Source: a virus. From it: 11,380 nt of DNA. Shown piece after piece: positions 2-10,203 of the stretch. Both the position numbers and the translations under genes were made by a program. The notes beneath the pieces are model-generated. The model did no database searches and was not told the DNA's origin. It was given only the letters and a program-made list of their open reading frames with translations. Numbering within the stretch: position 1 is the stretch's first letter; each line of letters opens with the position of its first letter. The stretch is taken from positions 174,249 through 185,628 of the IMG/VR virus record IMGVR_UViG_3300032163_000001; one strand, written 5' to 3'.

Positions 2-409
2 CTATTCACAAATTTTGAATTTGTTCGTTACAAAGTGCTTACCATCAAACTCTTTCAATGTGGTAAAACAAGACTCTATAGAATCAAAGAATCTATGTGT
101 ATGAAATGAAACCCAAATATCTTTTCTTATCTGTTCAGTTGGATCAATAACAAAAACAAGTTTATTGTTATCATATGCAAAACAAATTTCCATTGATGTA
201 CCCCAACTTGGTCTTACAGTATAAGCTACAACAACATCTGATTTCATAATTAAATATTTATCAAGCGAAGGAATTTTTGGAAGGGGTCTACAACCATCTG
301 ACATAGGATCGATTATATCAAAAACTTGTTCATAATCATAGTGTACTGTTTCTCTGTAGTCGGTTTCACCAGTATACCCTGCGAGGTAAATTTTCAGTTT
401 TTCAGTCAT
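2..409 (-). CDS. Nucleoside 2-deoxyribosyltransferase-like / DNPH1 (Rcl)-like protein, 135 aa, complete (ATG 409, TAG at 2-4)
   Basis: N-terminal KIYLAG motif and C-terminal GTSMEICFA...KLVFVI block resemble PF05014 family motifs, including the Glu nucleophile context DxGTxxExGxA. Weak SD (AAGGGA, long spacer). Sits in a minus-strand operon with QueC. Confidence 0.5.
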   Translation of the reverse strand: MTEKLKIYLAGYTGETDYRETVHYDYEQVFDIIDPMSDGCRPLPKIPSLDKYLIMKSDVVVAYTVRPSWGTSMEICFAYDNNKLVFVIDPTEQIRKDIWVSFHTHRFFDSIESCFTTLKEFDGKHFVTNKFKICE

Positions 410-438
410 AGTTTATTTATCCCTTTTTAGAATCCAGT

Positions 439-543
439 TTACTTCTTAATCTTAAAGACAAACCATTGTTTCGTTAACAATCTTGCCATGAGAATCGCTC
501 CACCCAAAACTCCAATGCCAAGAACTACTAAATATCCAAGCAT
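439..543 (-). CDS. Small hydrophobic peptide, 34 aa (MLGYLVVLGIGVLGGAILMARLLTKQWFVFKIKK), single TM
   Basis: ATG at 543 (complement) preceded by GGAAGGAGG with a 7-nt spacer. One hydrophobic helix. Lies between the SLT gene and the NDT-like gene on the same strand. Not in the supplied ORF track because it is below the size cutoff. Confidence 0.3.
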   Translation of the reverse strand: MLGYLVVLGIGVLGGAILMARLLTKQWFVFKIKK

Positions 544-584
544 TTTAATGCCTCCTTCCTTTTATATTTTCTTGAATCTACCCA

Positions 585-1256
585 TCACTTAAATCCTCCT
601 GTTTCATATACAGGATACCACTTGTTTAGAATCTTAAATGGGTAATCCCGATTTTCCTTAAAAGCCCATTGCGCCCTATTTGAATAATGCTCAACGTTAC
701 AAATCCACTTTGACGAATCTCTTCCCTTAGATTCAGTCAATTTTTGATCTTTCAAAACCCAGCCGTAGCCCCCGTTGTAAGAGGATAAAGTGAATCTCCA
801 CCTATCATCAGAACTATACGATTGTATAAACTTCTCATAGAGAAATTTATCATATTTGAGACAGGCGCGTATTGCCCATCGAGCGTCTAATGGTTTATTC
901 TCTCCTAAATCTTTAGCATATAATTTGCTAATCCATTCCGCTGTTTGCGGTGTGAACTGAGCTAATCCGGAGGCATATTTGCTTTGAGCCTCTGGGTTCC
1001 AGTTTGATTCTTGATGAATTTGAGAATAGAACACAGTAGCGGATTGATTTAATCCCCAATAATAATTTGTCTCCGCTCTCACTACACGCTTCAGTCTATA
1101 GGCTAAAGCTGGAATTCTGGCGTCTCTCTTAACTTCAAATTCCGAAGCTGAGATTTTGGGGTCTTTCTTAACTTCAAATTCCGAGCAATCCGCCGATAAG
1201 AAAACCAAGCATAACAAAACCCCTAAGAACGCACGCTCCAAGAAACTTGTAACCAA
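585..1256 (-). CDS. Lytic transglycosylase (SLT domain) with N-terminal signal peptide; probable phage endolysin or secreted peptidoglycan hydrolase, 223 aa, TTG start
   Basis: Catalytic-region motif QIHQESNWNPEAQSKYASGLAQFTPQTA matches the SLT family consensus ES..NP.A.S..GA.GL.Q..P.TA. Hydrophobic N-terminus AFLGVLLCLVFLSA. TTG start with AAGGAGGA 6 nt upstream. Contains an in-frame 13-aa tandem repeat (SEFEVK-K/R-D) after the signal peptide. Confidence 0.75.
   Translation of the reverse strand: MVTSFLERAFLGVLLCLVFLSADCSEFEVKKDPKISASEFEVKRDARIPALAYRLKRVVRAETNYYWGLNQSATVFYSQIHQESNWNPEAQSKYASGLAQFTPQTAEWISKLYAKDLGENKPLDARWAIRACLKYDKFLYEKFIQSYSSDDRWRFTLSSYNGGYGWVLKDQKLTESKGRDSSKWICNVEHYSNRAQWAFKENRDYPFKILNKWYPVYETGGFK
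1127..1205. repeat. Imperfect 39-nt tandem duplication (2 copies; core cttaacttcaaattccga at 1128-1145 and 1167-1184) inside the SLT gene
   Basis: Direct repeat read from the sequence. In frame, encoding SEFEVKKDPKISA / SEFEVKRDARIPA in the linker after the signal peptide. Confidence 0.6.
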
Positions 1257-1506
1257 TGTTATCCTCCTTTAATAAAGTGGATAAACTCATATCAGGCCAA
1301 ACAACCTTGCAGAACACATGACCAGAAACAGCTAAAATAAAACCTAACACTATCTTCCATATTCCTAACTGTATCTGAGTGTTTTGTGGAACAATATAGG
1401 TGTACAAAAAAAGCAATACCAAAATAAAGGCAAGAATCCACCTTGTATTAACGATGGCCCTAGTTGCTGGGCGTGCATTCATTTTTTCTCTAATCTGCAA
1501 TTTCAT
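1174..1506 (-). CDS. Holin-like small membrane protein, 110 aa, three predicted TM segments
   Basis: ATG at 1506 with GGAGGTGA 8 nt upstream. Hydrophobic segments WILAFILVLLFLYTYIV, IWKIVLGFILAVSGHVF and FLGACVLRGFVMLGFLIGGLLGI. Lies immediately upstream of the lytic transglycosylase on the same strand. Its 3' end overlaps the SLT start by 83 nt in another frame, so the exact C-terminus is uncertain. Confidence 0.45.
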   Translation of the reverse strand: MKLQIREKMNARPATRAIVNTRWILAFILVLLFLYTYIVPQNTQIQLGIWKIVLGFILAVSGHVFCKVVWPDMSLSTLLKEDNIGYKFLGACVLRGFVMLGFLIGGLLGI

Positions 1507-1576
1507 TCACATCACCTCCTTCTATTCTTAAATTAATGTTTTGCTTCTTGACCACATCCATATTCACATAATTTCA

Positions 1577-2302
1577 TTATTCTACTAATCCTCTTTTAAA
1601 TTCTTCTCTTACTTTTTGCATATACTCAACAGCAATTTTCCATTCTTTTTTGGTAAGCAACGGGTCTTTTATTTTGTTTTCATAAAACGCTTCAGTTCTC
1701 TCAACATCCGTACCACATTTTGAACACGGTCTTGTCTCTCCTCTGTAACATGACCAAGTATTTTTGAATGGAACTTTGTCTACTATTCCTATAGAAACAA
1801 TCTCAGCTTTTGTAAGATTATTAAAAGGACTAATTATTTCTACATGGTTATAAGTTGCCAGTTTTGATGCCTCACTTAGTGCTTGGATAAATTCTATCCT
1901 ACAATCAGGGTATTGGGCTCTATCCCCGGTGTGATTTCCAATAAATACTTTGTTTAGATTAAGTGATTCACTATATCCAATTGCCAAACTCAGCATTATC
2001 ATATTCCTATTTGGAACCACAGTTGCCTTCATACTATCATCTGAAAAATGACCTTCTGGAACTTTTACTTGTTCAGACGTTAAACAACTTCCTTGTAACA
2101 AGGGATTAATATTATGAAGGTTTATAACTTTGTGATTTAATCCTAGAATCTTACAAGTTTTTATTGCGCACTTTATTTCTCGCTTGTGTTTCTGACCATA
2201 ATCAAATGTTAATACTTGAAGATCCCAATCTGGTAACAAGTCATACAGAAGAACAGAACTATCCATCCCACCACTTAGTATTAAAACAGCCTTCTCTTTC
2301 AT
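1577..2302 (-). CDS. queC: 7-cyano-7-deazaguanine (preQ0) synthase QueC, 241 aa
   Basis: PP-loop ATPase motif LSGGMDSS. FDYGQKH matches the QueC FDYGQRH block. VPNRN and YPDC R match VPGRN and YPDCR. C-terminal Zn site CYRGETRPCSKCGTDVER (C..C..C..C). ATG at 2302 with GAGAGGAA upstream. Confidence 0.85.
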   Translation of the reverse strand: MKEKAVLILSGGMDSSVLLYDLLPDWDLQVLTFDYGQKHKREIKCAIKTCKILGLNHKVINLHNINPLLQGSCLTSEQVKVPEGHFSDDSMKATVVPNRNMIMLSLAIGYSESLNLNKVFIGNHTGDRAQYPDCRIEFIQALSEASKLATYNHVEIISPFNNLTKAEIVSIGIVDKVPFKNTWSCYRGETRPCSKCGTDVERTEAFYENKIKDPLLTKKEWKIAVEYMQKVREEFKRGLVE

Positions 2303-2399: not shown

Positions 2400-2482
2400 C
2401 AAAGAAAAGGATTATTATTTTATCATCAGAAAGGAGGTATGTGGAAGTTGAGTAAAGAAAACGGAGGAAGGAGGTGAAAATC

Positions 2483-2695
2483 ATGGGAGATGAAAATATC
2501 AAAACATCACAGTTTTCGGTCCTTAAAGCTTCTGCTGGAGAAAAGCTGGAGCCAGATGCGAGAAAACAAAGGAGAGTGGAGCTCTTAAAGAACGTTGGAG
2601 CAATCACGGTAGTAGCAATTTTAAGCGCGGCTTCCTTATTCGGTATAGGCCTCGCGGTTGGAGTTTTTGGAGGGGAACCCACCAAGACATCATAA
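2483..2695 (+). CDS. Small tail-anchored membrane protein, 70 aa (true start ATG 2483; the ORF-track GTG at 2474 lies inside the SD)
   Basis: GGAAGGAGGTGA SD with a 7-nt spacer. Polar N-terminal region, then the C-terminal TM AITVVAILSAASLFGIGLAVGVFGG and the tail EPTKTS. Confidence 0.5.
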   Translation: MGDENIKTSQFSVLKASAGEKLEPDARKQRRVELLKNVGAITVVAILSAASLFGIGLAVGVFGGEPTKTS

Positions 2696-2743
2696 GTTTA
2701 GTTTAATCTCTAATATTCTAATTAGGAGGGAGGTGAAAAAATA

Positions 2744-3103
2744 ATGATAATTAAGACTGGTGATGAACTATTAAAAACAATTAGAAGCTCTGGTGCTTCT
2801 GAAAACGTTGTAAATAAATTCAAAGAAGCCATTAACGAAAACGGTTCCTTGGAAATCAATGAGGTTCCAGAAGATCTTGAAAAACAAGTTGAAGCTTTCT
2901 GCCAGTGTTCAGATCCCACAACTATTCGTTCCAAAGGGAAGAAGTTCAGGAAAGCGGCTGTGATGTATGCTGGAAGTGTAGTTGGAGTAACTGCTATGGT
3001 TACAGGAGTCAGTCTTCTAATAGCGTATGGAGTTCGTTATGGAGACGCAATAAAAACTTCTCAGCAAATGAGCACCGGGATCACAGCAGGCCTGACCTTG
3101 TAA
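2744..3103 (+). CDS. Tail-anchored small membrane protein, 119 aa; paralog-like to the 2483 and 3349 genes
   Basis: AGGAGGGAGGTGA SD. C-terminal TM AAVMYAGSVVGVTAMVTGVSLLIAYGV. Ends ...GLTL, as the 3349 gene does. Confidence 0.55.
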   Translation: MIIKTGDELLKTIRSSGASENVVNKFKEAINENGSLEINEVPEDLEKQVEAFCQCSDPTTIRSKGKKFRKAAVMYAGSVVGVTAMVTGVSLLIAYGVRYGDAIKTSQQMSTGITAGLTL

Positions 3104-3112
3104 GTAAAAAAA

Positions 3113-3147
3113 TAGTATCTCAGTTTTCTTGAGGTACTATTTTTTTA
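3113..3147 (+). terminator. Rho-independent terminator
   Basis: Stem AGTATCTCAG / TTGAGGTACT (10 bp, two G-U wobbles), loop TTTTC, then a T7 run. Immediately after the stop at 3103. Confidence 0.6.
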
Positions 3148-3180
3148 ACAAGTAGATGATTTAATTAAAAAAAAAGAAGA

Positions 3181-3197
3181 CTATATATATTAATTAA
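3181..3197 (+). promoter_or_regulatory. Promoter-like motif CTATATATATTAATTAA (copy 2)
   Basis: Exact copy of the 17-mer, placed right after a terminator and upstream of the 3349 gene. Confidence 0.5.
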
Positions 3198-3348
3198 CAG
3201 AAGGTATAAGAAGAGTTATATTTTAAAATTCTTAAGAAAAAAGGAGGTGATGATTAAATAGTATTTGGATCAGTGAAAAGGTAGTTCTCTTCAACAATTT
3301 TCGATGTCAAGAGAATAATTATTTTCTTTTGACAGGAGGAGCATCTTC

Positions 3349-3615
3349 ATGAATGGGGGCATTGAAGGAGAATTAACAGAAACAAGATCCAAGATTGGAG
3401 AAGTATCTGCAGCTGAACCTGTTACAAAATCCCAAGAAGAAATTATAGTCAAACCCAACAAAAACGGGACTGGGATAAAATACCTTATTTCTGCTGCAGC
3501 AGGGTTTGTTGGTGGTATTGTACTCACAGCTGGACTAATTTACATTAGCAGACGATCTAATAGTGAAGTTGTTGAAATCATTACTAGCCTACCCCTATCA
3601 GGTCTAACTTTATAG
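3349..3615 (+). CDS. Tail-anchored small membrane protein, 88 aa
   Basis: ATG with GGAGGAG 7 nt upstream. TM YLISAAAGFVGGIVLTAGLIYIS. C-terminal ...SGLTL shared with the 2744 gene. Confidence 0.55.
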   Translation: MNGGIEGELTETRSKIGEVSAAEPVTKSQEEIIVKPNKNGTGIKYLISAAAGFVGGIVLTAGLIYISRRSNSEVVEIITSLPLSGLTL

Positions 3616-3636
3616 CTTCGGATAGGGGAGCTATTA

Positions 3637-3664
3637 AAGGGGGAATAGCCCCCCTTATTTTTTC
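3637..3664 (+). terminator. Rho-independent terminator
   Basis: AAGGGGG-aatag-CCCCCCTT stem-loop followed by TATTTTTT. A weaker hairpin (ATAGCT...AGCTAT) precedes it. Confidence 0.7.
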
Positions 3665-3681
3665 TCTCTTTGATAGTCGTT

Positions 3682-3698
3682 CTATATATATTAATTAA
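3682..3698 (+). promoter_or_regulatory. Promoter-like motif CTATATATATTAATTAA (copy 3)
   Basis: Exact 17-mer. TTGATA lies 7 nt upstream. Directly followed by GAAGAAAGGAGG and the 3722 ATG. Confidence 0.5.
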
Positions 3699-3721
3699 TG
3701 AAGAAAGGAGGTATATTTTAG

Positions 3722-3883
3722 ATGAAATTTACTGATGAACAAATTGAATTTATGAGAGCAGATATTGAATCGAGCTTTGCTTATTCTAAGTTAATTCATA
3801 TAGCAAAGAAGATTGTAGAAAGTGAAGGACTAAATTTCGAAGAGGAGTTCGAGAAGTGGAAAATAAATCAAAGGAGGAAATAA
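3722..3883 (+). CDS. Hypothetical small acidic protein, 53 aa (MKFTDEQIEFMRADIESSFAYSKLIHIAKKIVESEGLNFEEEFEKWKINQRRK)
   Basis: ATG after AAAGGAGG (10-nt spacer). No TM segment. Below the ORF-track size cutoff, so translated by hand. Confidence 0.35.
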   Translation: MKFTDEQIEFMRADIESSFAYSKLIHIAKKIVESEGLNFEEEFEKWKINQRRK

Positions 3884-3885
3884 AC

Positions 3886-4026
3886 ATGTCAAAGTTCTTT
3901 ATATTAGTCGCTGGTATTGGGATAGTGTTACAAATTGTATTCGTCAGTTGGACTTTAATTGACATTCGAGACGAACTTCGTATGATTCGAAAACATTTAA
4001 GAGGTGAAAAAATCGAAGAAAATTAA
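3886..4026 (+). CDS. Small membrane peptide, 46 aa (MSKFFILVAGIGIVLQIVFVSWTLIDIRDELRMIRKHLRGEKIEEN)
   Basis: AAAGGAGGAA SD with an 8-nt spacer. N-terminal TM helix. Starts 3 nt after the previous stop. Confidence 0.4.
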   Translation: MSKFFILVAGIGIVLQIVFVSWTLIDIRDELRMIRKHLRGEKIEEN

Positions 4027-4056
4027 CTTACAAAAAGAAAGGAGCAGATAGGAGAA

Positions 4057-4185
4057 ATGGAAGACAGAAAACCAAGTAGATCAAGATTCGTTATCGACTG
4101 GGGCACATTGCAATTCATTGTCCTGAATATATTCGCATTGGGTTTTGCATTGTTGGTAAACGCTTTGTTGAAAAAGTGGGGTTGA
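4057..4185 (+). CDS. Small membrane peptide, 42 aa (MEDRKPSRSRFVIDWGTLQFIVLNIFALGFALLVNALLKKWG)
   Basis: AGGAG-containing leader. Central TM helix. Confidence 0.35.
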   Translation: MEDRKPSRSRFVIDWGTLQFIVLNIFALGFALLVNALLKKWG

Positions 4186-4202
4186 GAGGGGAGGAGATAA
4201 AC

Positions 4203-4457
4203 GTGAAAAACAAAAGTATACCAGGTATTAATCTTTGTGTTGGTTGTGGATACTGTTGTTGGGAATCTACCTGTTCACTCGGTTTCAAACTCTATGGATC
4301 CACTCACCCTTGTTCAGCTTTGTATTGGAATAGACAGCAATATCGTTGTAAATTAGCAGACGATTTCGCAAATCATCTTTACATAGGTACAGGTTGCTGT
4401 TCTCCTTTAAATACATGGAGAAGAAACGTTCAACAAAGAACCGAAATATCACAATAA
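4203..4457 (+). CDS. Cys-rich CxxCxxCC (YkgJ/UPF0153-like) putative metal-binding protein, 84 aa, GTG start
   Basis: GGGGAGGAG SD then GTG at 4203. N-terminal CVGCGYCC fits the CxxCxxCC signature of PF03692. Further cysteines follow (C..C....GCC). Confidence 0.4.
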   Translation: MKNKSIPGINLCVGCGYCCWESTCSLGFKLYGSTHPCSALYWNRQQYRCKLADDFANHLYIGTGCCSPLNTWRRNVQQRTEISQ

Positions 4458-4488
4458 CTAAAAAAAAAGGAGGTGAAACCAAAAAAAT

Positions 4489-4623
4489 ATGAAAGAGGAA
4501 ATCCAAGCGTGGTTTATCAACAAAAACTTAAGTCTATTCTTTAGACTTAAGCACATACTAAACAGAGAAGTAGCTTGTTTGGTATGTTTCAAAATCGACG
4601 CTCTAATCAGAAAAATATTGTAA
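4489..4623 (+). CDS. Hypothetical 44-aa protein (MKEEIQAWFINKNLSLFFRLKHILNREVACLVCFKIDALIRKIL)
   Basis: Perfect extended SD AAAGGAGGTGAAACC before the ATG. Contains a 10-bp perfect inverted repeat (4527-4551). Confidence 0.4.
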   Translation: MKEEIQAWFINKNLSLFFRLKHILNREVACLVCFKIDALIRKIL

Positions 4624-4641
4624 ATAGGAAGGGAAAAAAGA

Positions 4642-4809
4642 ATGTATAAAGTAGCATGTAGAATCCAACAAGCATCAATTAGAAGAGCAGCAGTTTCAGG
4701 TAAAAATCTTAAACAATACATCGCTCCAAGAAAACCAGAACCACTGCCGGAATGGAGTAAGATTCTTAACAAAGTAGTTGTTCTAAAAAGAAACCATTAT
4801 TCTACATAA
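4642..4809 (+). CDS. Hypothetical basic 55-aa protein (MYKVACRIQQASIRRAAVSGKNLKQYIAPRKPEPLPEWSKILNKVVVLKRNHYST)
   Basis: ATG after GGAAGGGA. Lys/Arg-rich. The antisense ORF 4458-4772 in the track is judged spurious. Confidence 0.35.
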   Translation: MYKVACRIQQASIRRAAVSGKNLKQYIAPRKPEPLPEWSKILNKVVVLKRNHYST

Positions 4810-4824
4810 GGAGGTGAACAAGAA

Positions 4825-4971
4825 ATGAGAAAAATAAAAATATGGAGGATTCTAAAAGTATTATTAAGAGTTGAAAAATCGGAAAGACAGATCGTGAGAG
4901 AAAGACTAGCTGATCTGGCTAAGAGGTGGCTAAGAGGTGGTAAAGGAAAAGGAGGTGAAACCAATGGATAA
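4825..4971 (+). CDS. Hypothetical basic 48-aa protein (MRKIKIWRILKVLLRVEKSERQIVRERLADLAKRWLRGGKGKGGETNG)
   Basis: TAAGGAGGTGAACAAGAA then ATG. Its 3' end overlaps the next start at 4964. Contains an 11-nt tandem duplication, gctaagaggtg x2. Confidence 0.35.
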   Translation: MRKIKIWRILKVLLRVEKSERQIVRERLADLAKRWLRGGKGKGGETNG

Positions 4972-5386
4972 AGTTCCAGAGACTCCTATAGAGAAGTGTC
5001 AACACCGTTTATTAAGTCAAGCTTCTTCTATAGCTAATGACTTAAGGTGTCATGTATTTTGCGAAGGCAACAGGTTTATATATGATTTAGAAACTCTTCC
5101 AAATGTCATCAGCAGATGGATTATATATAAACCTGCAAAAGTTCCACGAAATATCCAAGAGATTCTTGAGAATCTTGATGAACTAAGCACTGAAGATGAG
5201 TTTTCTTACATTTCGTCTAGAGAAGAAGCTTTAGACGTGAGTGAAAAAACTCTAGCCTGGTTGCAGAAACTAGATGCTCCAATAATGTATTTCCAACAGA
5301 TTAGGAGCGAGATATCTGAAATTAAATCTCTCTTCAAAGAATGCCTTTTGAATACTCTTGTAGAATGTCTTACAAGAAAGAAATAG
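4964..5386 (+). CDS. Hypothetical protein, 140 aa (true start ATG 4964; the ORF-track GTG at 4937 is rejected)
   Basis: AAAGGAGGTGAAACC then ATG. Long ORF with coding-like composition. No recognisable motif. Confidence 0.55.
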   Translation: MDKVPETPIEKCQHRLLSQASSIANDLRCHVFCEGNRFIYDLETLPNVISRWIIYKPAKVPRNIQEILENLDELSTEDEFSYISSREEALDVSEKTLAWLQKLDAPIMYFQQIRSEISEIKSLFKECLLNTLVECLTRKK

Positions 5387-5425
5387 TCTCCATGGTGAGC
5401 AGTCAAAAAAAGGAGGAGAAATCAA

Positions 5426-5557
5426 ATGGAAGACGAAACAAAACTGCAGTTGAAGCAGGATACTCGAGATGTTGTAAAAGGTGTTGTGATTGAACTCATA
5501 GTCGTAGCTATAGTAGCGGGACTAGGAGTGTTAATTGCAGCTATGTCTAAAAAGTAA
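5426..5557 (+). CDS. Small membrane peptide, 43 aa (MEDETKLQLKQDTRDVVKGVVIELIVVAIVAGLGVLIAAMSKK)
   Basis: AAAAAGGAGGAGAA SD. C-terminal TM helix. Followed by a terminator. Confidence 0.4.
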   Translation: MEDETKLQLKQDTRDVVKGVVIELIVVAIVAGLGVLIAAMSKK

Positions 5558-5617: not shown

Positions 5618-6643
5618 CTATGACATCCACAACTTAAAGTTTAAGTTACTTATTTGTCCAAGAGAAATATTACTCATATTATTTACTAACTCTTTTCTTA
5701 ACTCTTCATTTCTATTTAGTCCTTCTATTACTTTGCTTTCGACTTCATTGTCGTTAAAATTCACTACACCTTTTTCTTTATAGAAACTCAATAATCTAGT
5801 TTTATTTCTAATCAACAAAGGTGTTCCAGACATTAAAACTTCTGTAACTACTCTTGGAGACCCATCGTATTCATTACTTGTCACAATTGCTAATCTACTC
5901 TTATTTAGAAAAGTATTAATTTCAGGTCTGTTCAAATGTCCTAAAAATTTGATATTAGAAACTCCAAATTTTTTACAAAGATCAATACCTTTTTCTGGTT
6001 CATTTCCCATATGTATGATACTTATTTTTTGTAGTTCTTTGGACTTAGAAACTTCACTTATAAAGTATTCTTGTCCTTTAAAGTTAATTTCACTAAAATT
6101 ACATATCCAACATAAATCATAGTTTTTAACTTGTTTCTTAAATGGATAAAAAATTTTGTCATTCGCTGTCTTAAAGAATGGATATGTTAAAGAATGTTTT
6201 AAATCTTCATCTGACTCAACAAGTATTTTTCTATATCTTCCTCCGTATTGTGGAAATACTCTTCTACCAGCACCTAAGTACAAACTATTACCAAAGAATG
6301 CATGTTGTCGTTTCGTGATCATACAATATTCTTGAAAACCACCTCTAAAGAAAGATATTGTTGGTTTAGGAAACTTATAGATATCATAAAAACTATTAAC
6401 AAACTTTTGAGTAAATGTTTTTCCTCTAATAGTAAAAACAATATCTTTAATATCTACTTTAGGTTTTAGCCTTAAAACAACTACTTCATCTACATAGTTA
6501 TTTTCTAAGTAACACAAACACATCAGAAGATAGAAATCATGACAATTAGTTTTGAATTGTTCTAAGTTTGTAAAACTATGATAGTATTCCAGAATTCTCA
6601 AATTAGTCCTAAATAACCACAGAATCTTTTTTTCCATATTCAA
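5618..6643 (-). CDS. GT-B fold glycosyltransferase (GT4/GT1-like), ~340 aa; start either TTG at 6643 or ATG at 6637
   Basis: C-terminal domain KFLGHLNRPEINTFLNKSRLAIVTSNEYDGSPRVVTEVLMSGTPLLI matches the GT4 nucleotide-sugar binding region (f.G....l..ly..a...v.pS..EgfG...lEAma.G.Pvi). Very AT-rich. Sits on the strand opposite to both flanking blocks. Confidence 0.55.
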   Translation of the reverse strand: MNMEKKILWLFRTNLRILEYYHSFTNLEQFKTNCHDFYLLMCLCYLENNYVDEVVVLRLKPKVDIKDIVFTIRGKTFTQKFVNSFYDIYKFPKPTISFFRGGFQEYCMITKRQHAFFGNSLYLGAGRRVFPQYGGRYRKILVESDEDLKHSLTYPFFKTANDKIFYPFKKQVKNYDLCWICNFSEINFKGQEYFISEVSKSKELQKISIIHMGNEPEKGIDLCKKFGVSNIKFLGHLNRPEINTFLNKSRLAIVTSNEYDGSPRVVTEVLMSGTPLLIRNKTRLLSFYKEKGVVNFNDNEVESKVIEGLNRNEELRKELVNNMSNISLGQISNLNFKLWMS

Positions 6644-7010: not shown

Positions 7011-7709
7011 CTAAGTAGTTGTTATTATTGCGTCTTCTCTTTGAAAAGAACGAAGTTTATGAGGAGCGATTTTCATACACCGAAGACCAATTGTTGATAG
7101 ACTATGTAGAGCTATATATCCACCCCTCCATTTCATAGGAGATAAATCTAAATTTGGCCTAGTTCTTTCTCCTCTAGTAACAAGATCAATATCATAGTCT
7201 TTTGCTAAAGGACTTTTCTGCAGATAATTTCGTAATAATATTTTGGTCCGATCTATATACATATCATTTTTAAAGTTACACATAATATGAAAAGAACTTT
7301 TTCCTGTAAATTTTATCCAAGCATTATCTATAAAGGGAATTCTAGAGTTTGCAAATTCATATGTATCGATAGCAGCTTGCTTAGCTTCTTTAAAGTTATC
7401 TGTATCAATATCTATAATTCCAAATCTCTCTATACTTTTCATAGTACAATGAATTGAAAGCATACGAGCATGAAAAACATCATCAAAATTTCCACGATTC
7501 AATCTTACAAAATGAGTTGTTTTTCCTCTTCTTAAAACTGTAATTCTATCACCAATAGCTAAAAAGATTATAAGGTCTCTATTAAAAATTTCAAATAGAA
7601 GCTTGTCTTTAACAGACTGATAGTAATCATAATTATTTTTCTCAGTAAGACCTTTTGGATAGAATTCATTGGTTATAAGAATACTATCTGGATGTTTGGG
7701 GTATGGCAT
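7011..7709 (-). CDS. LigD-type primase-polymerase domain protein (PolDom, archaeo-eukaryotic primase superfamily), 232 aa
   Basis: N-terminal [24 protein letters not shown] parallels the LigD Pol N-terminal consensus [35 protein letters not shown] matches motif I (FDLDP). [14 protein letters not shown] matches motif II (TSGSKGLHVY). [25 protein letters not shown] is motif III-like. Confidence 0.65.
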   Translation of the reverse strand: [232 protein letters not shown]

Positions 7710-7718
7710 ATTTTATCC

Positions 7719-8444
7719 TTATATATTTATAACGTCTCCTTCTTTTAGTATGCGTATTTCTTTGAAATGATATTCACTTTCATTTACATGGAATAAGTAA
7801 TCATTTATTTGTTTGTGACTCATGCGAATATGTCCAATGTGTGTAAAATACACACGGTTGACTTTACCTTTAACCCATTCTAGTTGGTGCAACATAGAAG
7901 CGTGTCCAATTCCAACTCTGTAAGAAATATCTTTTTTTAGGGCAGAGCCGTCACCCACATAAACTTCGACTCCTTCAAGAACTTTATTCTTACTTAACAG
8001 TTCTTTTGTATCCGGAGAATATAAAAGTTTTCCGATCCTAATAGCAGATGCAGGTGCAATACTGCTATGAAGAACAGGAAATAAAGTTACAGGGTATCCT
8101 GAAACATCTACGGTGTCTCCATAGTCTAAAACATTAACTTTTTTATCTTCAGGAATTATATGGTGTCTCACTAAAAAGTTATATGTAATATGAGACATAT
8201 AAAGTTCTTTATCAAGATGATATTTTACAGACCATGAGTGGTCAGGGTGAGAATGTGTAATTATAATCTTATTTACTTCACCAGGAATAACTTTAAAATC
8301 CTCTCCACAATCCAACATTATATCTTTTATAAGAAGAGATGCATTTCTTCTCTTTGTAAATATTGGATCTTTACAAGAGGCACAACCACACCCTTCTCTT
8401 GGAAAGTGAATTGAACAGCATGACCCCACTACAATTGCTTTCAT
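7719..8444 (-). CDS. PhnP-like metallo-beta-lactamase fold phosphodiesterase (cyclic phosphodiesterase-like), 241 aa
   Basis: IITHSHPDHSWS is the MBL HxHxDH motif. N-terminal GSCCSIHFPREGCGCASC mirrors the PhnP GTGGAQGVPAWGCECAAC region, including the CxCxxC structural Zn site. C-terminal YFTHIGH matches ILTHISH. Start overlaps the ligase stop (ATGA). Confidence 0.65.
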   Translation of the reverse strand: MKAIVVGSCCSIHFPREGCGCASCKDPIFTKRRNASLLIKDIMLDCGEDFKVIPGEVNKIIITHSHPDHSWSVKYHLDKELYMSHITYNFLVRHHIIPEDKKVNVLDYGDTVDVSGYPVTLFPVLHSSIAPASAIRIGKLLYSPDTKELLSKNKVLEGVEVYVGDGSALKKDISYRVGIGHASMLHQLEWVKGKVNRVYFTHIGHIRMSHKQINDYLFHVNESEYHFKEIRILKEGDVINI

Positions 8445-9481
8445 CTTATCTCCGCTCCCGTACCCAGTTGATCTAATCTTATATCTACGTCATTTACCGA
8501 CTTATCTGGACGTTCTCGAACGAAACTAGGCATGTCCAATGAAATTGTAAGTTTACTTCCCAGTGATACATATTTACTCCTAGTAAATTTATAAGCAGGT
8601 GCTTGTTTTATTCTCCATCTAAATGCTTTGATTTCTACTACCATTTCAGGTTTTACGAAGAACTCTCCATTAATTTCATCACTAATTATTTTTTTTCCTC
8701 CAACAAAATAATCATATAACTCAGACCTTTTAGCATGAGTAAATCCTGTACCGACATCCGAAGAAGATCTAAAAGTTCCATCAGGCCCAATGAAAGCTAG
8801 TTTAAGATAGCTTATTTGTTTTCTTGGCCAACTTTTCATCTTCGTACTTCCAATACCATATACAATCATATCCCAACTGGTGGTAGTTTTAATCTTATAA
8901 TTATCTCTACCATCGTCTAGTCTAGCTACTACTCCTTCAATACCCTTCTTTCTTATAGCTTTAGCATAAAGATCTTTAAAGTCATCAACTCCTCCATACA
9001 CATACTTTGGAATATGAATTCTCTTCGTATTTCTAAAATGACTTGTTATTTCTTCTATAGACTCTTTATAAGAAGTAAATCTTTTTGAATTGATAGAAAA
9101 GATGTCATAAATATAGTGTTGTACTAAAGGTTTATTTTCCACTAAACGAGACATCTTTACAACACTCATTAAATCTGGAAATGGAAGAATCAGGTTATTT
9201 CTAACCGCTACTAATTCTCCTATTAACACTATTTCTTTAATAGTTCTATTTCTACTAAGAATATCAGAGTACTCTTCAAGAACAGGAAGATCAATTATTT
9301 TGATATTATTTATTGTTACAAAGTATGTGTACCCTTTAACAAAAATAAGAGCGCCTAACATACCATCAATTTTTTCAATAAAATAAGAATCAGGAACTTT
9401 CTGAAATTTAGAGATAAATTCATTGTATTCTAGTTGCTTAAAGTTTACGTATTTTTTCCACTCTGCTGCAAAATTCATCAT
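8441..9481 (-). CDS. ATP-dependent DNA ligase (LigD ligase-domain-like), 346 aa
   Basis: Nucleotidyltransferase motifs: I EKIDGM (KxDG), III LIGELV, IIIa YIYDIF, IV EGVVAR, V YKIKTTTSWD, VI FVRERPDK. Confidence 0.7.
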   Translation of the reverse strand: MMNFAAEWKKYVNFKQLEYNEFISKFQKVPDSYFIEKIDGMLGALIFVKGYTYFVTINNIKIIDLPVLEEYSDILSRNRTIKEIVLIGELVAVRNNLILPFPDLMSVVKMSRLVENKPLVQHYIYDIFSINSKRFTSYKESIEEITSHFRNTKRIHIPKYVYGGVDDFKDLYAKAIRKKGIEGVVARLDDGRDNYKIKTTTSWDMIVYGIGSTKMKSWPRKQISYLKLAFIGPDGTFRSSSDVGTGFTHAKRSELYDYFVGGKKIISDEINGEFFVKPEMVVEIKAFRWRIKQAPAYKFTRSKYVSLGSKLTISLDMPSFVRERPDKSVNDVDIRLDQLGTGAEIR

Positions 9482-9915: not shown

Positions 9916-10203
9916 ATGATACTTTTAAAAGTGTTACTAGGAATATTGTTAGGAATATGTGGCCTTATATGCTTAGCTATATTTTTCGTATTCACATTCG
10001 CAACTCTACCATCACTTTGGGTGAATACAATCATATATGGGGCACTTACTCTCTGTGGCATGCTCATCTATTTCCTACCATCAGTAGTAGCTATCGCTAG
10101 ATACAAAAAGAACACTCTAGCTATTTTCGCAGCGAACCTTTTAGTCGGATGGACATTCATAGGTTGGGTCATTTGCTTCATATGGGCACTTACAAAGGAC
10201 TGA
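9916..10203 (+). CDS. Superinfection immunity (Imm, PF14373-like) membrane protein, 95 aa
   Basis: YFLPSVVAIARYKKNTLAIFAANLLVGWTFIGWVICFIWAL matches the Imm-family signature YFLPsiiA.(R).(H/K)(K)N...IF.lNLLlGWT.IGW..AliWA. Two or three TM helices. Strong SD. Confidence 0.6.
   Translation: MILLKVLLGILLGICGLICLAIFFVFTFATLPSLWVNTIIYGALTLCGMLIYFLPSVVAIARYKKNTLAIFAANLLVGWTFIGWVICFIWALTKD

Follow-up and report, generated by a model that had tools for sequence, protein, structure and literature searches.

A DmtZ-like protein of the nucleoside deoxyribosyltransferase superfamily linked to 7-deazaguanine genes in phages, a candidate for base exchange on dGMP

Phage DNA that carries 7-deazaguanines is protected against restriction enzymes and against cleavage by CRISPR-Cas9, and in the cases tested DpdA suffices to put preQ0 into DNA (PMC6884629, PMC10516641). 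No component of the nucleoside 2'-deoxyribosyltransferase (NDT) family is described for phage deazaguanine clusters in the literature reached by full-text searches and in the key pathway papers; Hutinet 2019 remarked that 'undetected 2'-deoxyribosyltransferases' were possible. Among phages in which a canonical purine is replaced, the NDT-family enzyme DmtZ of PurZ0 Z-genome phages is specific for deoxynucleoside monophosphates (dNMPs), hydrolyses dAMP and does both base loading and dNMP depletion, for A and for Z; it is mainly a hydrolase, with transfer reaching only 20% in vitro, the Ghobes enzyme hydrolyses dZMP too, and a salvage role for Z bases was proposed by its authors (PMC12884076). 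Here we analyse an 11,380-nt stretch of viral DNA (the window; IMG/VR record IMGVR_UViG_3300032163_000001, positions 174,249 to 185,628), in which a gene for the preQ0 synthase QueC lies on the same strand as a gene for a 135-aa protein. We found that this protein belongs to the NDT/DNPH1 superfamily and that genes of its subfamily are widely linked to 7-deazaguanine genes, and we suggest that it may be a DmtZ-like enzyme acting on dGMP.

The window corresponds, in reverse complement, to about 6.2-17.6 kb of the 111,530-bp metagenome contig k141_4250956 (ENA ERZ27247924). A check of the open reading frames (ORFs) placed four minus-strand genes in window 2-2302, for QueC, a 110-aa protein, an SLT-domain protein and the 135-aa NDT-like protein with its KIYLAG and GTSMEICFA motifs, all of them where the first-pass annotation of this DNA had located them. 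The two genes on which the argument turns are the following:

1577..2302, minus strand: QueC of the preQ0 synthase type, 241 aa (PF06508, TIGR00364 and motifs)
2..409, minus strand: NDT-superfamily enzyme of a DmtZ-like subfamily, 135 aa (KIYLAG and GTSMEICFA; Y8, R19, P35, D50, S68, G70-T71-x-M73-E74, W99, H103)

The setting of the NDT-like subfamily was analysed in 79 IMG/VR loci that encode it, in which ORFs were called and clustered. A QueC-family gene, QueD, QueE, FolE, DpdA (phrog_887) or a DpdA-like gene was present within 10 kb in 62 of them, and two further loci carried a QueE-like gene, which brings the linked loci to 64/79; after dereplication, the linkage was seen in 17 of 23 lineages at 60% identity and in 36 of 42 at 90%. 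Direct adjacency to a deazaguanine gene on the same strand was seen in 45 of 74 loci, 37 of them with a start/stop overlap, and a typical arrangement was QueD(-4)NDT(-4)DpdA. A 233-aa protein was assigned as DpdA-like from an hhalign probability of 95.8% against DpdA and from its nearest isolate homologs, which are annotated DpdA-like. The partner QueC comes in three forms: the canonical one, as in the window and in locus L001; a short QueC-like protein without YPDC and the zinc motif (L007-L019); and a 463-aa QueC-family fusion of the size of Gat-QueC, inside a cluster of QueE, QueD, FolE and DpdA (L066-L082). Since L007-L019 share the phage lineage of the window, they do not count as independent evidence of linkage, as the other lineages do. 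The same association is found in three isolates, Rhizobium phage RHph_X3_2 (QueE-hyp-NDT-QueC-QueD-FolE-hyp-DpdA, hyp being a hypothetical gene), Aminobacter phage Erebus (QueE-hyp-QueC-QueD-NDT-FolE-...-DpdA) and Edwardsiella phage vB_EpM_ZHS (QueC-FolE-DpdA-...-NDT-polymerase genes). The NDT homologs of 9NA-like phages, which are more distant, showed no link to deazaguanine genes. The link between QueC and the NDT-like gene is real, widespread and not due to chance, and it is highly probable that the NDT-like protein is functionally tied to 7-deazaguanine metabolism; the numbers of loci and lineages and the three isolates speak for the joint action of the two proteins that the first-pass annotation had proposed.

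As for QueC itself, the window protein scored 197.9 bits against PF06508 (cut-off 22) and 188.5 bits against the NCBIfam equivalog TIGR00364 (cut-off 150.3), and it matched the solved QueC structure PDB 2pg3 with an E-value of 4e-27. The signature of true preQ0 synthases (QueC 'Cluster 1') consists of SGGxDS, YxQxHxxE, VPxRN, YPDC and C-x8-C-x2-C-x2-C (PMC13329287). The protein had been described as a complete QueC with all family motifs, and this is right for the HMM (hidden Markov model) cut-offs and for the four catalytic motifs (SGGMDS 10-15, YGQKHKRE 35-42, VPNRN 96-100, YPDC 131-134), but not for the zinc motif, which reads C185-x7-C-x2-C-x2-D199, with an Asp in place of the fourth Cys and a first spacer of 7 instead of 8. 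An identical QueC sequence, Asp included, is present in the independent sample L006, so that D199 is real; the L001 relative, 69% identical, keeps the fourth Cys (C-x7-C-x2-C-x2-C), and the QueC of the isolate RHph_X3_2 is without any zinc cysteines (L086 8406-9299). Asp is able to bind zinc, and the function of the protein may be kept; going by its sequence, we regard the window QueC as functional, with one unusual ligand. As a measure for the linkage described above, QueC homologs are found in only 335 of 50,697 phage records.

FolE, QueD, QueE and DpdA are absent from the window, as had been noted, and the genome to its left supplies one of them. A QueE homolog of 224 aa lies just after PolB on the source contig, ~6.3 kb left of the window, and has 51 phage matches, of which the annotated ones are all QueE or radical-SAM. 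FolE and QueD were not found in record positions 1-36,320 of the 111,530-bp source contig, about one third of it, which is the part covered by our gene searches.

In the relatives of the window phage, L007-L019, a QueC-like protein of 183-221 aa replaces QueC (e.g. L007 4457-5008); it keeps SGGxDS, YxQxHxxE and VPxRN but neither YPDC nor any part of the zinc motif and, to judge from these motifs, likely catalyses a different reaction on a deazaguanine-type substrate. The identification of these short proteins as DpdL was ruled out, since DpdL is a QueD paralog. In L018 (7771-9465) a 564-aa QueE-like radical-SAM protein with matches to Hint/intein-type domains is encoded upstream of the NDT-like gene, with a dNMP kinase after it.

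The membership of the 135-aa protein in the NDT/DNPH1 superfamily, which the first-pass annotation had read from its motifs, did not come out with the single sequence, which missed all Pfam thresholds (PF18306 24 bits; PF15891 17.6 against 30; PF05014 15.0 against 28.8), but is right at the level of the family and of the structure, and the homology is established at these two levels only. A word-indexed protein search returned only 2 relatives, and a profile of three sequences gave noise against the PDB and a poor model (pLDDT 48.6); an exhaustive HMMER search returned 603 cluster representatives. PF05014 was matched by 78 of the 117 aligned family members at E<1e-3, and PF15891 by 70 of them. 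Against PDB sequences, the family profile reached YtoQ and solved NDTs with E-values from 1e-7 to 6e-6, and more weakly MilB, Rcl and DNPH1, the DNPH1 sequences being marginal (E 0.01-0.4); NDT matches outranked TIR matches. The structure model (pLDDT 91.5) predicts a Rossmann-like fold of the NDT type. Over the 117 members on which conservation was counted, the catalytic triad, which aligns with the triads of NDTs and DmtZ, is near-invariant (Y8 in 115, D50 in 114, E74 in 116), and so are other sites, with P35, S/T68, G70 and W99 conserved in 117/117, T71 in 115, M73 in 113, H103 in 112 and R19 in 100. Public records label the family 'hypothetical' or, generically, 'nucleoside deoxyribosyltransferase'.

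The position that separates the family from the solved NDTs is residue 68, located at -6 from the nucleophile, which is Ser or Thr in 117/117 members (S68 in the window protein) and Asp in the NDTs 7m5h and 2a0k. In human DNPH1, S98, at -6 from E104, binds the 5'-phosphate, and NDTs are without a phosphate pocket (PMC10603095). DmtZ carries a hybrid signature, in which the triad is combined with a 5'-OH site without Asp/Asn, with Pro57 as in transferases and with Trp124 as a lid (PMC12884076). This combination is present in the family, as Y8, D50, E74, S/T68, P35 and W99 are each at least 97% conserved, the putative lid role of W99 coming from alignment only. Wayne DmtZ and the window protein align motif by motif, with these corresponding blocks:

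LYLAYP in Wayne DmtZ, IYLAGY in the window protein
YDPG in Wayne DmtZ, IDPM in the window protein
KINQ in Wayne DmtZ, LDKY in the window protein
RSWGVPAE in Wayne DmtZ, PSWGTSME in the window protein
PSWAMP in Wayne DmtZ, DIWVSF in the window protein

A Foldseek search of viral models (BFVD) returned a 161-aa Ghobes protein and a 145-aa Archimedes protein (E 4e-4 and 3e-5, respectively); size and source, rather than accession, suggest that the Ghobes match is DmtZ.

Fusions and neighbouring genes give further indications of the substrate. The NDT-like domain is fused to DUF5664 (PF18909) in proteins P0009, P0060 and P0113, and to the dNMP kinase DNMK in P0026, with one member also carrying an ATP-cone. 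It has been reported that DUF5664 converts dATP, dGTP and dUTP to dNMPs, and that in phage Wayne DmtZ is fused to DutZ, a diphosphatase of deoxynucleoside triphosphates (dNTPs) (PMC12884076). Among the relatives of the window phage, L007, L013 and L019 encode DUF5664 immediately upstream of the NDT-like gene and L018 encodes DNMK immediately downstream; dCMP deaminase adjoins the NDT-like gene in L008 and L014 and is one gene off in L016, and a MazG-like gene of the phiST type is near it in L013 and L019. These fusions and neighbours place the enzyme between the dNTP-to-dNMP step and the step from dNMP to the diphosphate (dNDP); the kinase fusion favours a dNMP as the product, and the DUF5664 fusion a canonical dNTP as the source. 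On residues and fusions, chemistry at the dNMP level is rather probable, and the nucleoside-level chemistry originally envisaged gives way to it, considering the Ser/Thr that stands for the 5'-OH-binding Asp in every member and the dNTP diphosphatase and dNMP kinase partners. The two activities that had been envisaged, loading of the base and depletion of dGMP, both have biochemical precedent in DmtZ, for A and Z (PMC12884076).

The string of genes had been thought to end with the 135-aa gene, but it continues leftward past the window edge, on the same strand, with a 139-aa gene followed by PIG-L-like, GT-B-like, 1080-aa UDG-PolB fusion and QueE genes. The first of them, which we call partner X, is located as follows:

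L005 10420-10839, record strand plus: partner X, 139 aa, 11 nt downstream of the 135-aa gene and just left of the window

Partner X is adjacent to the NDT-like gene in the window lineage, has 21 invariant residues and occurs as a C-terminal fusion partner of that enzyme domain in no fewer than 10 proteins (P0005, P0038, P0062, P0065, P0076, P0095, L009/L010/L012/L017); it has no match in Pfam, PHROG or PDB sequences. It is probably a functional partner of the NDT-like enzyme. A tandem NDT paralog was rejected as its identity, as the NDT profile gives no match to it and the two had clustered only via the fusions elsewhere.

A scheme that would accommodate these data can be proposed for the window phage, a T4-like phage that would make a 7-deazaguanine base. 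QueC and QueE would bring the synthesis to the free base (preQ0 or something close to it), with the earlier preQ0 steps presumably provided by the host or by genes elsewhere in the genome, and dGMP would be supplied from dGTP or from host-DNA breakdown. Glu74, held by Tyr8 and assisted by Asp50, would attack C1' of dGMP, guanine would leave, and a covalent deoxyribose-5-phosphate-enzyme intermediate would form. Either the 7-deazaguanine base would then take over the sugar phosphate, which yields 7-deaza-dGMP, or water would do so, with destruction of dGMP. The modified dNMP would next be phosphorylated to the triphosphate by kinases and enter DNA through the polymerase of the phage itself; DNA polymerases use 7-deaza-dGTP well. 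Such a pre-replicative branch would also lower the competing dGMP/dGTP pool and, in phages with a neighbouring DpdA, would run alongside post-replicative base exchange.

We give this scheme a probability of about 0.42 and prefer to read the 135-aa protein as a DmtZ-like exchanger of guanine and 7-deazaguanine at the dNMP level, or as a dGMP glycosidase, and not as a classical NDT, as its residues and gene partners suggest. The specificity for guanine/deazaguanine and the balance between transfer and hydrolysis are what we infer. Net transfer onto the 7-deazaguanine base, taken by itself, falls somewhat short of an even chance. More tentative still is the wider proposal of a second, pre-replicative route, in which a widespread, hitherto unnoticed DmtZ-like enzyme would swap the guanine of dGMP for preQ0-type bases and which in the window lineage, with no DpdA found near the genes, could be the sole route, possibly with partner X.

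Several observations weigh against an exchange on dGMP. The Asp at one zinc ligand of the window QueC makes the activity of this protein not certain. The window NDT-like protein is neither fused nor adjacent to a diphosphatase or a kinase, its neighbours being the SLT gene and partner X. The invariant proline, which has been reported as a mark of transferases that hydrolases lack, is a weak predictor, because DmtZ P57A retained both transfer and hydrolysis (PMC12884076). The similarity to DmtZ is remote, as the A2 HMM gave 13.2 bits against Wayne DmtZ and hhalign an E-value of 7e-4 with a probability of 26%; for this reason we call the family DmtZ-like in signature and not a member of the DmtZ clade, and it is probably, on these sequence comparisons, a separate subfamily. 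Moreover, the field currently regards all 7-deazaguanine DNA modification as post-replicative (PMC10516641), and in most lineages translation of the NDT-like gene is coupled to that of a DpdA or DpdA-like gene. Since DpdA already suffices, a nucleotide route is not needed in these lineages, and salvage of the base or recycling of dGMP fits them equally well.

The same coupling bears on the DpdA-independence of the route, which had been suggested as one option in the first-pass annotation: it does not hold in general, the NDT-like gene overlapping a DpdA or DpdA-like gene in most lineages, and for the window phage it is no more than a possibility. In the searched part of the source contig DpdA was not found with the HMMs of DpdA (c6) and DpdA-like (c1) and with the DpdA3 seed of phiST, nor was it found in 13 related loci of 13-20 kb of the window lineage. 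The conserved lineage proteins c7, c10 and c11 were considered as a cryptic DpdA and rejected (hhalign probability <=1%); c10 is weakly GT-B glycosyltransferase-like and c7 is PIG-L/LmbE-like. In Cellulophaga phage phiST (L096 9421-11583) the unannotated CGPG_00066, with a GEICSGKDT motif, is encoded between DpdL and DpdA3, beside a MazG-like pyrophosphatase; it was rejected as an NDT-like protein, its motif being P-loop kinase-like. In this phage dDG replacement is ~100%, and nucleotide-pool enzymes are embedded in the DpdA3 cluster also there.

The best surviving alternative, an unlikely one in our estimate, is that the protein is only a hydrolase, a DNPH1-like N-glycosidase of dGMP (or dNMPs), the freed guanine passing through host salvage to GTP and into FolE-QueD-QueE-QueC while DpdA modifies the DNA post-replicatively. 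The Ser/Thr at -6, equivalent to S98 of DNPH1, would suit this role, as would the mainly hydrolytic nature of DmtZ with its 20% transfer in vitro, and DUF5664 diphosphatase fusions would supply the dGMP; DpdA is a neighbour of the gene in most lineages, and in Erebus and loci L066-L082 FolE is its immediate neighbour. The transferase-typical proline argues against it, and both the kinase fusion in P0026 and the DNMK gene adjacent in L018 make little sense for an enzyme that purely destroys dNMPs. Furthermore, there are minimal two-gene modules of NDT-like and DpdA-like genes with no biosynthesis genes in the examined flanks, which leave no phage pathway to feed with GTP.

In a second alternative, less likely again, the protein would be a salvage hydrolase serving DpdA and would recover the free base from 7-deaza-dNMPs that arise from degraded modified DNA or from stray phosphoribosylation. 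The tight start/stop overlap with DpdA or DpdA-like genes, modules without biosynthesis genes included, speaks for it, and the salvage of Z bases proposed by the DmtZ authors, together with the hydrolysis of dZMP by Ghobes DmtZ, is in line with it. Against this stand the DpdA-negative 36 kb of source contig and 13 related loci, the DUF5664 dGTP/dATP diphosphatase fusions, which suggest a canonical nucleotide as input, and the supply of 7-deaza-dNMPs in an infected cell, which we infer to be small.

A classical nucleoside 2'-deoxyribosyltransferase (EC 2.4.2.6), which would use dG or some other deoxynucleoside to make the 2'-deoxynucleoside of preQ0, is improbable. Fold, catalytic triad and transferase Pro would all allow it, and the ADG nucleoside has been reported in CP220-infected cells (PMC10516641); yet the Asp that binds the 5'-OH is Ser/Thr in 117/117 members, the partners are enzymes of dNTPs and dNMPs and not nucleoside kinases, and the closest functional signature is that of the dNMP-specific DmtZ. 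Just as improbable is the absence of any specific deazaguanine link, with a general nucleotide-pool or anti-defence protein of SLOG/TIR-like fold as a chance neighbour of QueC in the replication module, given the association in 17/23 lineages with three QueC types and frequent start/stop overlaps, the ranking of NDT above TIR matches and the nearly invariant NDT triad.

Between QueC and the NDT-like gene the window encodes three other proteins, all in the same direction:

1174..1506, minus strand: 110-aa protein with three hydrophobic segments, weakly holin-like (phrog_1528 and DUF350, both weak)
585..1256, minus strand: SLT-domain lytic transglycosylase, 223 aa (PF01464, phrog_669)
439..543, minus strand: hydrophobic 34-aa peptide ORF with an AGGAGG ribosome-binding site (called in L004, L005 and L006; sequence read directly)

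The first-pass annotation had placed a holin-like and an SLT lysis gene here; the SLT gene is matched by PF01464 (48.5 bits) and phrog_669 (E 4e-41), and the holin likeness is weak (phrog_1528 E 0.007; DUF350 E 0.003). The SLT ORF starts at TTG and overlaps the 110-aa ORF. In the L001 relative, small ORFs of 83 and 58 aa occupy the slot of the 110-aa gene, and an SLT match was not recorded between its QueC and NDT-like genes. The SLT gene is an intervening gene, not conserved in this position in the L001 relative, the 110-aa gene is also an intervening one, probably outside the pathway, and window 439-1506, with the 110-aa, SLT and 34-aa genes, resembles a small cassette of the lysis type that was inserted between the QueC and NDT-like genes. 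The term operon applies here only in the sense of same strand and short gaps; promoter-like sites were at chance level (11 found, 9.4 expected), and the scan for promoters and terminators was uninformative on operon structure. No preQ1 riboswitch, other known RNA or tRNA was present in the window.

Beyond the QueE homolog, the source contig carries on the same strand genes for Cpn10, a DnaB-like helicase, a T4-type portal, a prohead protease and a gp23 capsid protein; from this gene content, the source phage is a large T4-like phage with a genome of at least 111.5 kb. A megablast search with the whole window gave no match in 50,697 phage records. In L005 (13501-17431) the UDG-PolB fusion (PF03167, PF00136 and divDNApol) is followed immediately by the QueE homolog and Cpn10. 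A GT1 glycosyltransferase (window 5618-6643, minus strand) is conserved across the lineage, as are, in the replication module, the weakly GT-B-like c10 and c7, which has the PIG-L/LmbE deacetylase motif 'PHxDDE' (L004 13208-13705 and 13929-14870); GT1, c10 and c7 together may form a sugar-based modification system. A gene for an MBL-fold hydrolase (7719-8444, minus strand), the product of which weakly matches a ligase-associated exonuclease family, overlaps by 4 nt the gene for an ATP-dependent DNA ligase (8441-9481, minus strand); next after the MBL gene, a 232-aa protein (7011-7709) has no detectable relatives in family libraries. On the plus strand, divergent from QueC, about ten small ORFs occupy window 2474-5557, several with hydrophobic segments, and the GC skew switches sign near 2300 and back near 5500. 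A 95-aa membrane protein (9916-10203, plus strand) is a PF14373 (Imm_superinfect) match in the precomputed annotation of the source contig.

If true, a pre-replicative route would overturn the view that all 7-deazaguanine modification is post-replicative DpdA chemistry, and would be a candidate explanation for genomes with complete replacement of G. Base exchange on dGMP, if it occurs, would add a nucleotide-level branch to the pathway, would be a second natural example of a deoxyribose-5-phosphate transferase and might offer a biocatalyst for 7-deazapurine deoxynucleotides. Three cultured phages (Erebus, homolog QJD54350; RHph_X3_2, homolog QWY83379; vB_EpM_ZHS, homolog UNA00817) carry the gene, and the question is directly testable in them.

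In comparison with known systems, the contig resembles the phage 7-deazaguanine systems (FolE-QueD-QueE-QueC or Gat-QueC with DpdA1-4; Hutinet 2019; Cui/Hutinet 2023) in having QueC and QueE, and differs from them in that they are described as strictly post-replicative and the papers searched and read on them list no NDT-family component, and in that DpdA, QueD and FolE were not seen in its searched part. A QueC-family gene coupled to an NDT-family domain is also found in the proteobacterial QueC-family 'Cluster 4' (Biochem J 2026, PMC13329287); this group, however, is without the canonical QueC motifs, has another Cys signature, unlike the Cluster 1-like QueC of the window, and its partner is a bacterial PfkB-PF05014 fusion. 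From the classical NDTs (PF05014; PDB 7o62, 6evs, 7m5h, 1f8x, 2a0k) the family is set apart by Ser/Thr in every member in place of their 5'-OH-binding Asp and by its nucleotide, not nucleoside, enzyme partners, and the window protein also by a single sequence below the Pfam threshold. With DNPH1/Rcl it shares a Ser of the phosphate-binding type at -6 from the Glu (S68/E74 here, S98/E104 there), but it has P35 in 117/117, aligned with the Pro of NDTs and DmtZ that hydrolases lack according to the DmtZ paper; moreover, in DNPH1 a helix of the partner subunit contributes a second phosphate-binding Ser, S128', to which no counterpart was identified here, the C-terminal region of the window family has the family-specific D97, W99 and H103 instead, and the window protein is phage-encoded, in a base-modification context.

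The nearest likeness is to DmtZ (Ghobes AOE44404.1; Wayne DmtZ-DutZ ALY10777.1; NAR 2026, PMC12884076). Both are phage proteins of the NDT superfamily of ~135-160 aa, with the same catalytic triad positions (Tyr and Glu identical), a transferase-type Pro in a D-P motif, a Ser-Trp-Gly-x-x-x-Glu block, a conserved downstream Trp and an uncharged residue where NDTs bind the 5'-OH; both have a fused or adjacent dNTP-to-dNMP diphosphatase (here at the level of the family and not beside the window gene), and both occur in phage settings with a canonical purine replaced. They differ in that the window family has Asp50 in place of Asn77 of DmtZ and its own His103 and Arg19, and that Asp12, the proposed adenine reader of DmtZ, is without an evident counterpart in the window protein in a comparison made at motif level only. 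The partners are also different, QueC, QueD, QueE, FolE and DpdA for the window family and PurZ0 and DutZ for DmtZ, and so would be the bases, presumably guanine and 7-deazaguanine in the former and A and Z in the latter.

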